From contig JAZDCY010000030.1 of assembly GCA_036679645.1 (NCBI GenBank), positions 1 through 37,579 of the forward strand: 37,579 bases of DNA. The letters are read 5' to 3'. The position numbers were made by a program, and so were the translations under genes. The notes below the pieces were generated by a model that was not told the DNA's origin, ran no database searches, and worked only from the letters and a program-made list of their open reading frames with translations. This DNA comes from Gemmatimonadota bacterium. Its GTDB lineage: Bacteria > Gemmatimonadota > Gemmatimonadetes > Gemmatimonadales > GWC2-71-9. How positions within the stretch are numbered: position 1 is the first letter of the stretch; every line of letters begins with the position of its first letter. Positions 13,634 through 31,876 of the stretch are shown here, piece by piece.

Positions 13634-15397
13634 CTAGTTCTTGCCGCCCCGCCGGCGGGACGGTGACCGTCGCGCCGGTCTGGCCGACCGTGACTGCGGC
13701 CTGCTCGCCGGTCGCGCCGACCGCGACCGCGGCCTACTTGCCGGACGTGCAGACCGCGACGGTGGCCTACTTGCCGGACGTGCCGACCGCGACGGTGGTC
13801 TGCTCGCGGGCCGTGCCGACCGGGCCGGCTGCCGATTGCTGGGCCGCGCCGACCGCGTGGTCGATGGCCTGTTCGACGTACGCGCGGAGCGTGAGGTCGA
13901 GCGACGCGGTGATGCACTGCGTGTGGCGGACGGCGAACGCGATGCTCCCGTACTCCTGCGCGTGGGACTGGCGCCGCGGCTCCCACCCGCTGCCGGCCGC
14001 AGACCGCGTGACGTACCGGAACGTGTCGTGCGTCGCGCGGAGGTACCGCTCCGGTTCTGCGGTTGGCTACGAGTCGCAGGCGTCGGCGAGCGCTCGACGG
14101 GTGCCACCGGGAATGAGCGCGGGGTCCCTATGCGCTCCGCTGGCGTGCCGTCGCGGCGGCGTCCGCCAGAAGGCGTTCCGGTATTGGCGCGCCGCGTTGG
14201 CTGGGCTGCCTCGGCGGGCCGGTCGCGCTCTCCGCCAATCAAGGGTGTCCGAGTAGGCGGCGACAACTCGCGGGGAGCCAGGCGCCGGCTCTCACCTGCC
14301 GTTCCACGTGACCGATCGGCGGAGCGTCGCGTGGGTGCCTGAATGCGCCGGGCCGGTGTTGATCGATCGACCGCGGCGGACCGGCGTGTCGGTGTCCGGG
14401 CGGCTGGTGTGGCGCGGCGAGTGGTCGTGGTCGACGCGCTCCTGCGAGTAGCAGGTCCGGTTCGAGTTGCGATACCGGAAGTAGTAGCAACACTGCGGCG
14501 ACGTGGACGCACGACCTCCGGCCGAATACCCCAACGGTCGCCGTTGGACTTGAAGGCATACCGCCGCGATCCAATCGACCGTGAGCCGCCGGCTACAAAG
14601 ACACCGCGCGGTGACGCCCGATGCGGCGCCGACCAGTACACAAATCGCGAACCGTAGCCGTAGAAAAACGGGTCGTAATAAAATGGGTCGTAGTAGAACG
14701 GGTCGTAGTACGTGTAGGCGCCCCGGTAGTGGTGCCGGTAGCCGAAGTAGTACGGATCGTAGTAGCCGCTATAGCCGAAGTACGAGAACGGCCCGAACCC
14801 CAGGTACAGGTTGAACCCGCTCCGGTAGTATGGGTCGTGATAGTACAGCGACGGCTGGTAGCTGTCCGTGTACGCGACATCGTAGCCGACATCGTACTCG
14901 TACACGTCGTAGTCAAACCGGCCCATCACCGCCAACCGGGTGACGAAGCTCGTCAGGTCGGCTTCCGCATCGTCACTCGAAATCCACTCGGGGAGTGTGT
15001 AGTCCCAGTGGTCACCGAGCATGAGAGGGTCGAACACGAACGGGTCGGGTGAAAACGCGGCGTAAATCGCACCGCGTCCCGCCGATTGGTAGACCGTAAA
15101 GGCGTGCCGGTCGCCGCGGCCGCGGATCTCGTACTCGCGGTCGCCGCGCACAAAGTGATCGTCGGCCGGGTCGAGCGGGAACAGCACGCGGACCCGTCCC
15201 TCGGGGTCGGTGTGCAGCACGACCAGGTATCCGTCTGTCTCGGTGCGGACATACACACGCAGCCGGTCGCGCCGCTCGATGTTGCGGCTCTTGTTCAGCC
15301 ACACTCTGACGGGAGGGTCCGCATCCTGGATAACGGGTGCGGCGAGCGTTGTCTCCGTGCCGGAGACTGCGAGTGATAGCAGGACCGCTGTCAACAT
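13634..15397 (-). CDS. DUF4384-domain exported protein with a Tyr-rich segment and a long Arg/Ser/Pro-rich disordered tail
   Basis: GGAGG SD; signal peptide; VRVW..GYLVVL...GRVRVLFP (DUF4384-like); YYDPF repeats; RSARPASRPPS repeats. Confidence 0.75.
   Translation of the reverse strand: MLTAVLLSLAVSGTETTLAAPVIQDADPPVRVWLNKSRNIERRDRLRVYVRTETDGYLVVLHTDPEGRVRVLFPLDPADDHFVRGDREYEIRGRGDRHAFTVYQSAGRGAIYAAFSPDPFVFDPLMLGDHWDYTLPEWISSDDAEADLTSFVTRLAVMGRFDYDVYEYDVGYDVAYTDSYQPSLYYHDPYYRSGFNLYLGFGPFSYFGYSGYYDPYYFGYRHHYRGAYTYYDPFYYDPFYYDPFFYGYGSRFVYWSAPHRASPRGVFVAGGSRSIGSRRYAFKSNGDRWGIRPEVVRPRRRSVATTSGIATRTGPATRRSASTTTTRRATPAARTPTRRSAAVDRSTPARRIQAPTRRSADRSRGTAGESRRLAPRELSPPTRTPLIGGERDRPAEAAQPTRRANTGTPSGGRRRDGTPAERIGTPRSFPVAPVERSPTPATRSQPQNRSGTSARRTTRSGTSRGLRPAAGGSRGASPTRRSTGASRSPSATRSASPRRSTSRSARTSNRPSTTRSARPSNRQPARSARPASRPPSRSARPASRPPSRSARPASRPRSRSARPASRPQSRSARPARRSPSRRRGGKN
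13660..13870 (-). repeat. About six degenerate 33-bp coding repeats (RSARPASRP.S)
   Basis: Visible in both DNA and translation of the DUF4384 protein C-terminus. Confidence 0.8.
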
Positions 15398-15650: not shown

Positions 15651-15834
15651 CTGAGCGTCTGAGCGTCTGAGCACCTGAGCGTCTGAGCACCTGAGCACCT
15701 GAGCGTCTGAGCGTCTGCGCACCTGAGCACCTGAGCGTCTGTGCGTCTGAGCACCTGAGCACCTGAGCGTCTGAGCACCTGAGCACCTGAGCACCTGAGC
15801 ACCTGAGCGTCTGTGCACCTGAGCGTCTGTGCGT
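15651..15834. repeat. Tandem array of 23 x 8-bp units CTG[A/T/C]GC[GT/AC]
   Basis: Parsed unit by unit: 11 units end in GT, 12 in AC; no indels. Confidence 0.97.
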
Positions 15835-15845
15835 CTAGCTGTCCC

Positions 15846-30411: not shown

Positions 30412-30957
30412 TCACGGGGTCGGTCTTCCGTAGTGCATGTGCACTGCCCGAGCAGACCCACCGGGTAGCAGTGTCACAATGAAGAGGTCGTCGTATTCGT
30501 TGTCCGCGATCGCCGCCACGTCGGGGACGCCCAGGGCCCGCATCACGTCTGGCGTGGTATTGCTGTGGCCCACGACGAGCACGGTCTGGCCCGCGTAGTC
30601 GGTGCGAAGGCGTGCCGCCAGGTCGCTGGCGAATGTCCTGGTAACGGGCGTCTCTGTGACTGGTAGCCCCATCTGGGCGGCCACCGGCCGACCGGTCTCA
30701 CGAGTGCGGATGAAGGGGGTGGAGAGCACCGCCTCGAACGGGAAGTCGGCCAGTACGTGCGCCAGCTGGTGCGCTCGCTCCTCGCCGGCTTGGCTCAGGC
30801 GGGGATCACGCGAGGCGTCGATTTTCTCGGCATGGCGGACGAGGACCACGGTCGTGACAGCGGGCTCACCCTGTGCAACGACAGGCGGTGCGGTGGTCAG
30901 CACCACCAGCATGCCGATCGTCCACAGAAGTCCCGGCTCTGATCTCGGCACCCGCAT
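30412..30957 (-). CDS. Exported histidine phosphatase (phosphoglycerate mutase/SixA family)
   Basis: GGGGGAG SD; signal peptide; LVRHAEK, RTRET, LVVGHSNT. Confidence 0.88.
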   Translation of the reverse strand: MRVPRSEPGLLWTIGMLVVLTTAPPVVAQGEPAVTTVVLVRHAEKIDASRDPRLSQAGEERAHQLAHVLADFPFEAVLSTPFIRTRETGRPVAAQMGLPVTETPVTRTFASDLAARLRTDYAGQTVLVVGHSNTTPDVMRALGVPDVAAIADNEYDDLFIVTLLPGGSARAVHMHYGRPTP

Positions 30958-30972
30958 TACTCCCCCTTTGGC

Positions 30973-31074
30973 GTGCGTCTGAGCGTCTGAGCGTCTGAGC
31001 GTCTGAGCGTCTGTGCGTCTGTGCGTCTGAGCACCTGAGCACCTGAGCACCTGAGCGTCTGTGCGTCTGTGCGT
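30973..31074. repeat. Second array of the same 8-bp unit: 12 full units (30979-31074) plus one partial
   Basis: Units are CTGAGCGT, CTGTGCGT and CTGAGCAC; abuts the rhomboid stop codon. Confidence 0.97.
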
Positions 31075-31075
31075 C

Positions 31076-31876
31076 TCAATGAGTAGTGCTGAAGCGATCC
31101 AGAAATCCGCGTTCCTTGGCGTTGAGGCTGGCGACCCCGGATGCGGAGATCTTGTCGAGAATCCGATCCAGCTCCTCACGATTCAAGGGGTGCATCTCGT
31201 CGCCGTCGATCTTCTTCCAACGGTCACGCGGATCGACGAACGGCAGCGGCTTGAGGTTGGGCTGTGCGCGCCGTTTGAAGCGAGCCGCGGGGGAGAAGTA
31301 GTCCCCGAACCTGAGAAAGAGAAAAGCGCCGACGAAGCCGCCCAGGTGCGCGAAGTGAGCGATGCCCTGGCCGCCGAAGCCCAGACTGCCCCAGAACGCG
31401 AGCGCGGTTACCCCGATGACCAGCACCCTCGCCGGGACGGGGATCACAAAAAACAAGAGAATCTGCGCCCGGGGAAAGTAGTGCGCGAACGCCCACATCA
31501 CGCCGAAGATCGCGCCAGATGCACCCACGATCGCCGCAGACGGCGTGAAGATCGACAGCGCCGCGCCTCCGAGGCCGCTCACGAGGTACAGCTGGATGAA
31601 CCTGCGCCCGCCCATTCGTTCCTCGACCCGTGGGCCAAAGAAGAACAGCATCAGCATATTGAAGAAGATGTGTCCGAACCCCGCGTGCAGGAACATGTAG
31701 GTGAACGGGGTCCACGGCGTCTTCCACACGGTTGCGGGCACTAGCCGGGTGTACCGGAAGATCACATTGCCGATAGGGTACGGGAACTCCGAGAAACTCG
31801 GGTGGAGACTATAGGTCACCAGAAACACGATCGCGTTCGCGAGCAGGAGCCGCTTCACCCAGGGTGTCAGGAACAT
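31076..31876 (-). CDS. Rhomboid family intramembrane serine protease with a C-terminal soluble (DUF6576-like) domain
   Basis: TYMFLH..HIFFNM, GASG, AHLGG; ELDRILDKIS..G..SL...E. Confidence 0.92.
   Translation of the reverse strand: MFLTPWVKRLLLANAIVFLVTYSLHPSFSEFPYPIGNVIFRYTRLVPATVWKTPWTPFTYMFLHAGFGHIFFNMLMLFFFGPRVEERMGGRRFIQLYLVSGLGGAALSIFTPSAAIVGASGAIFGVMWAFAHYFPRAQILLFFVIPVPARVLVIGVTALAFWGSLGFGGQGIAHFAHLGGFVGAFLFLRFGDYFSPAARFKRRAQPNLKPLPFVDPRDRWKKIDGDEMHPLNREELDRILDKISASGVASLNAKERGFLDRFSTTH

Follow-up and report, generated by a model that had tools for sequence, protein, structure and literature searches.

Cyanobacterial STRR are short intergenic tandem arrays that are comparable to the arrays described here and are likewise unexplained. 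The closest described systems are summarized below. In REPIN/RAYT systems, a resident gene of stable position is flanked by a repeat, many gene-less inverted doublets of the repeat are dispersed as hairpins, singlets are their decay products, and a given gene type is matched by a repeat type of its own (Bertels and Rainey 2011, PMC3116915). In Coxiella burnetii, the 23S intervening sequence (IVS) combines a PF05635/S23p protein with terminal inverted repeats and short tandem units of variable number (PMC4990558). The bacterial MITEs RUP, NEMIS/Correia, ERIC and YPAL are non-coding and shorter than 200 bp, have terminal inverted repeats with TA in their ends, give hairpin transcripts and occur as filled and empty sites (PMC2229807). 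The TAACTGA arrays of Beggiatoaceae, cyanobacteria and Bacteroidetes are lineage-specific, comprise 2 to >20 units at gene boundaries, often overlap stop codons, are unstructured on their own and have an unexplained origin; that main text contains no mention of four-helix proteins, S23 or intervening sequences (PMC4679880).

The octamer arrays of the genome studied here are like these systems in the features named. They are unlike REPIN/RAYT in that the gene product is not an HUH tyrosine transposase but a four-helix-bundle protein for which no catalytic site is known, and in that the arm is a non-palindromic tandem octamer array, whereas REP sequences are palindromic. The elements lie between protein genes and not in rRNA, and dispersed gene-less copies accompany them, unlike the 23S IVS. 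Unlike the TAACTGA arrays, they can be linked to both a cognate gene and a hairpin element with defined ends. Unlike MITEs, they have GC-rich arms of tandem units, variable loops and a full-length partner that carries a non-enzyme gene. No description linking four-helix-bundle genes to dispersed tandem-repeat hairpins was found in the literature covered, i.e. main texts with few subscription papers among them; the supplementary files of PMC4679880 list ORFs next to repeats and may be relevant here.

The array in question lies between two genes of the window, i.e. the whole stretch of 37,579 nucleotides that was analysed:

30412..30957, minus strand: histidine-phosphatase-family gene (PF00300)
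30960..30966, minus strand: Shine-Dalgarno-like GGGGGAG of the phosphatase gene (from the sequence)
30973..31077, minus strand: solo octamer arm of 13 units (GAGACGCA once, CAGACGCA four times, CAGACGCT five times, CAGGTGCT three times)
31076..31876, minus strand: rhomboid protease gene (PF01694 and DUF6576)

Our main reading, with a probability of about 0.62, is that this array is a half-element of a hairpin family whose spread is licensed by a protein. The part of it that concerns the array itself, namely that it is a half-element that was lengthened, is held with good confidence.

On the minus strand, positions 31076-30973 consist of 13 exact octamers of three kinds (AGACGCAC/AGACGCTC/AGGTGCTC). 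Tandem Repeats Finder gave 12.8 copies with 92% match. The original prediction had counted 12.5 units; the array is real, but the exact count is 13. Its description of the array as filling nearly the whole gap, with the rhomboid stop overlapping the first repeat base, was confirmed by the coordinates: the stop TGA is at 31078-31076 and its A doubles as base 1 of the array. The phosphatase ATG is at 30957, leaving 15 nt between the array end and the ATG, and the Shine-Dalgarno sequence lies inside those 15 nt. A relative with 82% identity has GAGGGG at the place of GGGGGAG.

The array folded worse than its shuffles (z +1.75). No partner arm was found in the rhomboid-phosphatase gap and, hence, the array cannot form a stem. 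A terminator was not found in this gap either, which is the sole ground for taking the array to be transcribed. The contigs of the best sequencing run break at the array, so that its length allele is not readable from the reads. A role of the array in the expression of the rhomboid or phosphatase gene is not required by the main reading.

Two further observations concern this region. A 255-aa frame (30412-31179, minus strand) runs from inside the rhomboid gene through the array into the phosphatase frame; it is open because the array units contain no stop. It is likely incidental, though the unit number would switch the frame. In the phosphatase-infA gap (30362/30363), a full-depth contig of sequencing run X1 has 85 letters more than the window, possibly a repeat or hairpin that was collapsed in the assembly.

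The window contains a second array:

15654..15837, minus strand: second solo arm, 23 units, the longest of the 81 arms in the genome
15846..16919, minus strand: DUF481 gene upstream of the second arm (gene call and profile match)

The second array starts with AGACGCACAGACGC, as the rhomboid array does, and both are built from a common unit alphabet. Its first TAG unit is located 8 nt past the DUF481 stop and not on it, and the distance to the next gene is ~250 bp. The two arrays had been described as having the same polarity and context and as both starting with this sequence directly after a stop codon. The strand and the start are indeed shared, but the context is only loosely alike because of the 8-nt offset and the ~250-bp gap. 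The longest contiguous stretch common to the two arrays was 38 bases, and 39-40 bases were shared with arrays on other contigs. The window arrays are thus no closer to each other than to arrays elsewhere, and they are not a local duplication. Elsewhere in the window, the DUF4384 gene contains tandem repeats with periods of 33 bp and 15 bp (13683-13857 and 14659-14710), which probably encode peptide repeats.

A strict scan of the genome identified 65 arrays at 52 loci, with none in a 4-Mb order-5 Markov control. A scan with a unit profile gave 84 raw arms, which were merged to 81 arms of 2-23 units; the control gave none at equal score. A dispersed family had been proposed instead of a one-off VNTR, and this is what the 81 arms represent; the alternative that the window arrays are the only two copies, derived by local duplication, does not apply. 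The order of units varied among arrays. All but one of the arms (80 of 81) were outside called genes. Gene calls came from our own hexamer-based caller and ARAGORN, so single distances may be off.

The position of the arms followed the nearest boundary. Among the 79 arms with neighbours on both sides, 63 were at a shorter distance from the boundary at their back than from that in front, and 35 of the 81 had a convergent inverted partner within 400 bp (two had a divergent partner). The arm rule is that an arm points away from its nearest boundary, like the arms of an inverted pair. For 58 arms, the distance from the arm start to a gene or tRNA boundary was at most 30 bp; 47 of these followed an end, and the other 11 preceded a start in antisense. 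The stop-codon bias is therefore strong, but it is not a rule. The arm's own TAG served as the stop codon in 19 cases, and TAG was the stop of 33 of the 43 genes with an arm behind them, compared with 1017 of 2994 genes in the whole genome. Convergent gaps were enriched (21 of 62 arm loci vs 234 of 1764 gaps) and divergent gaps depleted (6 of 62 vs 396 of 1764). Only 17 of the 81 arms began with CTAG.

The bias to gene ends is real, but most of it reflects how inverted arms are arranged when they start at boundaries. Targeting to 3' ends, as in the original prediction, therefore held as a bias (47 of 58 boundary arms, 33 of 43 TAG stops) with exceptions in 11 of 58. A strict orientation to transcription did not hold, given these 11 antisense arms and the solo arms in co-oriented gaps, of which 12 of 17 were in sense (p=0.14). 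GT and AC units did not differ by polarity (p=0.54).

Nine arms were located 3-10 bp from tRNA ends or starts (C9:138835-139185, C64:5756-6051, C99:21543-21630 and contigs C11, C28, C50 and C77), and an orthologous tRNA cluster in four relatives contained hairpins of types A, C or D (defined below). The only arm inside a called ORF, near a contig end (C99:91884-92039), was a mixed array of 19 units that contains a higher-order repeat of 42 bp. No Rfam family was found at the gathering score; six loci gave generic miRNA-hairpin matches far below the cut-off, and the window locus gave none.

Arms that begin exactly at boundaries and differ in unit order could also stem from a reverse transcriptase or a similar activity that writes repeats de novo at the ends of genes, or be independent VNTRs or a local duplication. 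We regard this as highly improbable: RVT_1 matches were absent from the genome (92.67% complete), the elements have defined ends, a conserved inner arm and a cognate gene, and the similarity of the window arrays to arrays elsewhere speaks against local duplication. The earlier suggestion of a footprint of a repeat-writing or mobile system is thus retained for a gene-linked element and not for writing by a reverse transcriptase, none having been found.

The strict octamer pattern was found in 29 of 401 genomes of the phylum, all within two families, with 99 matches in this genome and at most 19 in any other. In the relatives, the usual form was a gene-less rod with arms CTAGACGCACAGACGCACAGnGGTGAACAG and a variable loop. 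Twelve of these hairpins were found, with lengths of 84-106 nt (10 of them at 91-98 nt), and CTAG was present at 11 of 12 left ends and 11 of 12 right ends. The four that were folded had z values of -9.7 to -12.5. For the convergent pairs of this genome, 18 listed pairings gave z -2.9 to -12.3 and lengths of 63-193 nt; both size ranges are within that of MITEs. The pairs retained the inner part of the relatives' arm, with CAGGGGTG...CACCCCTG conserved, and hairpin loops varied from site to site. Like REPIN doublets, the family thus has paired arms (35/81), an extragenic position (80/81) and stable hairpins (z -2.9 to -12.5). Among 10 syntenic loci of relatives, four, at two distinct sites, bear arms in this genome.

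Solo arms behaved differently and, unlike REP sequences, folded worse than shuffles (n=33, mean z +1.1, 25 of 33 above 0). Their reverse complements showed the same lack of structure (mean z +1.2). The idea that one arm is copied from the other by fold-back was rejected, as partners were no more alike than random arms (19.9 vs 20.4 of 24, p=0.93).

A scan of a genome collection with the octamer pattern gave at least 112 loci (flanks available for 80), with most matches in unrelated phyla. Among the 112 loci listed, a four-helix-bundle gene was near the array in two, as detected with a 5-sequence HMM.

In the relatives, octamer arms also enclose a four-helix-bundle gene (PF05635/TIGR02436). The closest solved structure for its product was 2GSC (E 3e-16), a homopentameric toroid according to PMC4990558. 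By similarity to 2GSC, the cassette protein is predicted to be a homopentameric ring. At E 1e-30, 33 of the 171 genomes of the family had an ortholog, and mnmG adjoined it at 31 of 32 inspected loci (29 co-oriented, 2 flipped). Thirty PF05635 loci were present in five arm-rich genomes; one ortholog per genome had these arms, and most of the other loci had different 7-9-nt arm families. Four genomes (G077, G350, G243, G240) had the strict pattern and, with the query used, no close ortholog (best E values of 1e-11 to 1e-27). Other proteins of the family lay between similar octamer arms in G026, G310 and two named genomes.

The gene is under purifying selection: among 26 orthologs, pN was below pS in every one of the 325 pairs (median 0.18 vs 0.76). 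Of 34 orthologs, 23 had a TANNNT box (-10-like, leaderless-type) 4-8 nt upstream of the start, unlike the 23S IVS. By eye, a YGCR-N5-6-GRT-like motif was seen between the arm and the -10 box upstream of many four-helix-bundle genes (L256-L285). No catalytic fusion partner was found: five longer homologues were all read-throughs into neighbouring genes. Unlike REPIN/RAYT, none of the 16 Y1_Tnp loci of five arm-rich relatives had octamer words, and no octamer arms were found within 350 bp of the four Y1 genes of this genome.

In this genome, no intact cognate gene was found in the assembly. A remnant on contig C86 (7389-7579) corresponds to residues 86-119 of the cognate protein with 50-56% identity. 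It is located at the same mnmG-side junction, is flipped and 5'-deleted, and comprises the last 36 codons of the gene, between two octamer arms of the local CTCAG-type units. The remnant may be an assembly artefact, and an intact copy could be located in the missing 7% of the genome. Of the two same-genus genomes, one had a disrupted ortholog with arms and the other an intact ortholog with no recognisable arms; neither matched the four type patterns. A gene between repeats, as in the 23S IVS, is thus seen in the cassette of the relatives, while this genome has only a remnant and the window array is gene-less.

The Coxiella IVS, which RNase III cuts, has the same build as the cassette, with an S23p ORF, a terminal stem of 28 bp and heptamers in tandem (PMC4990558). 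The elements might then be stems that are cut from transcripts in the same manner. RNase III domains were, however, found in only one of 41 genomes of the order and in none of 25 of the family, unlike the IVS setting, whereas 8 of 14 control genomes were positive. The near-absence of RNase III makes excision as in Coxiella unlikely here; moreover, the studied array has no partner, so that no stem is possible. We give this explanation very little credence. The sole RNase III (PF00636) among the 41 genomes was on a contig of G038.

Four unit types of cassette arms (A-D) were assigned by eye. The protein tree grouped by arm type: three types formed clades (FastTree support 0.85-0.96) and the fourth was basal. 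The tree of the adjoining mnmG grouped largely by genus, unlike the protein tree. The near-identical hosts G174 and G230 had different cassette types.

The dispersed repeats were compared with the resident type using one pattern per type. Counts for all four types were available for 28 genomes, two of which had no match, leaving 26. The commonest dispersed type was the resident type in 16 of 26 genomes (permutation p=0.00015 free and 0.00035 within genus); as the patterns had been designed from cassette arms and the matches of each genome's own cassette were subtracted by hand, this test of concordance is post hoc. The mean share of the resident type was 0.53 vs 0.39 under within-genus permutation (p=0.00015 for the share and 0.00035 for the top type). 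The clearest contrast was between G174 (type A; 7 A and 1 D matches) and G230 (type D; 1 A, 7 C and 13 D). In the other 10 genomes, including G368, G376, G277 and G227, the commonest dispersed type differed from the resident type. Gene conversion with no protein recognition could give the same picture. Types B-D had no matches in 18 genomes that lack the ortholog, but presence and absence are not independent since the ortholog carriers are largely one groEL clade.

The original prediction had proposed checking the rhomboid-phosphatase junction in related genomes for filled and empty alleles, and both were found. The array comprises 13 units here and 6 units after CTAG in the 82%-identical metagenome relative. 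The two genes are adjacent in both same-genus genomes too, and the array is absent there (2/2): in G001, the rhomboid stop overlaps the phosphatase start (ATGA), and in G002 a short gap follows C-TAG. Neither filled allele shows a partner arm; that the array was once paired is therefore suggested by other sites.

Within one genus and its neighbours, the alleles of three orthologous gaps comprised the full hairpin, the left arm, the right arm, a single CTAG or nothing, with eight half-element alleles in all. At the L242 site, the alleles were a single CTAG in three genomes, full hairpins in G174 (type A) and G363 (type C), and the left arm only in G230. At the L429 site (15 genomes), there were one full hairpin, one left arm, three right arms or stubs and six alleles with nothing; four were not comparable. 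The L430 site showed two full hairpins, one internal deletion, three left arms and one single CTAG with outer flanks. Of the rest, three had a hairpin of another repeat family and five had nothing. Solo arms thus arise commonly at sites that also have full hairpins. Both palindrome-spanning deletion and the slippage of tandem units are well-established processes. Taken together with the full, half and empty alleles, this makes it likely that the array at 30973..31077 is a half-element that was lengthened by slippage. It would be the surviving arm of a ~95-bp inverted-repeat hairpin element, with arms as around the four-helix-bundle gene, which would have lost its partner arm and then grown to 13 units by replication slippage.

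The same sites bear on the question of whether the hairpins are ordinary MITEs, moved by a CTAG- or TA-targeting DDE transposase of the IS630/IS5 type, with the four-helix-bundle gene as passive cargo and matching types due to gene conversion or segment exchange. Hairpin length was nearly uniform and the ends are CTAG. In the three empty alleles of L242, the lone CTAG is the stop codon, and the filled alleles have CTAG on both sides, which might reflect a target duplication; the empty junction allele of G002 likewise ends the rhomboid gene with C-TAG. MITEs flanked by TA are known from bacteria (PMC2229807). At other sites, however, conserved inverted flanks extended past CTAG, and one allele kept these flanks with a single CTAG. 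CTAG may thus be internal to the element. In this genome, only 17 of 81 arms begin with CTAG, loops differ between sites, and the pairs are gene-less apart from the remnant. No transposase with matching ends was found between the arms, either here or in the fetched loci. As the arm type also follows the clade of the protein and purifying selection acts on the gene, we consider a MITE origin of this kind unlikely.

Downstream of groEL, at least two units within 70 nt of the stop were found in 19 of 34 ortholog carriers vs 0 of 16 controls. These arms mostly did not track the resident type: they were mostly of type A regardless of it, and many were solo arms before an intact terminator. Hence, old copies persist, and there is room for selection. 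An addition of arms around host terminators was considered and rejected: the host terminator is retained in solo groEL alleles, but the loops of paired alleles are of the element type and are found again at unrelated sites. Genomes that lack the family carry other 7-8-nt arrays right after the groEL stop (L388 in G017, L390 in G020, L392 in G038). In G038, the unit of this array matches the arms of its own four-helix-bundle gene.

Proteins such as TRAP and Hfq are rings that bind RNA. By analogy, the arrays could be selected cis-regulatory sites in 3' UTRs or intercistronic mRNA, where the ring would bind unstructured RNA and tune processing or translation, in this case of the phosphatase and infA. 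The sense position of 47 of 58 boundary arms, the poor folding of solo arms (mean z +1.1, 25/33 above 0), the units after groEL and the missing terminator in the rhomboid-phosphatase gap are in line with this. Avd, a distant homologue (NF033474, E 3e-4, below the cut-off), is reported to bind RNA (bioRxiv 2023.10.23.563531). Against it stand the truncated cognate gene in this genome, the empty and half alleles at the same sites in close relatives and the unit number of 13 vs 6 at the junction. Moreover, the reverse complements of solo arms were just as unstructured and their sense bias in co-oriented gaps was not significant (12/17). Sense-strand arms paired better in 25 of 34 cassettes, but mismatched partners gave the same shift (-4.5 vs -4.85 kcal/mol), which means that the strand asymmetry is compositional. 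This was the sole such signal, and selection at the RNA level as its cause was rejected; the RNA-level regulatory element of the original prediction thus finds no support in it. The probability that we give to cis-regulatory sites is low.

In our main reading, each protein subtype would recognise its own arm sequence on the hairpin or on single-stranded nucleic acid. The protein may license hairpins bounded by these arms for copying to gene boundaries, frequently onto a TAG stop or immediately behind it, similar to a RAYT serving its REPINs. As it has no known catalytic site, the cutting and joining activity would come from the host or in trans. As the cognate gene of this genome is truncated, decay of the family is likely here: pairs would lose arms and the remaining arms would drift in length. 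A tension is that this genome has the most and the longest arrays although its cognate gene is broken.

A broader possibility, which we put forward only tentatively, is that the proteins of the S23p family act as adaptors programmed by sequence and that the miniature mobile elements they serve form a new class. A given subtype would read its own 7-8-nt tandem arm and drive the spread of gene-less hairpins to gene boundaries while not being a transposase, and a cassette swap at the fixed locus would switch the repeat family of the genome. Two loose ends would be joined in this way: the 7-8-nt intergenic arrays of unexplained origin and the widespread S23p/four-helix-bundle family. If true, the reading of arms by adaptors would account for the ORF-bearing rRNA intervening sequences as well as for the families of orphan 7-8-nt repeats in many phyla. 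Nature provides four protein-arm subtypes that are swapped at one locus among close hosts, with dispersed repeats that tend to follow the resident type, and the genome studied here is a natural loss-of-gene case.

Three other four-helix-bundle genes of this genome have arm families of their own (C44:7392-8095, C7:93172-93545 and C61:82506-82874). Their units are GGAGATT, GCAGATT/GCAGAGT and GGCGGA-type, with 7, 8 and 3 arrays of at least three units genome-wide. A GxxExxY gene (PF13366, nuclease fold; C63:9706-10107) is bracketed by short inverted arms resembling 9-mers, a packaging like that of the four-helix-bundle genes, and is located 187 bp from an octamer arm.
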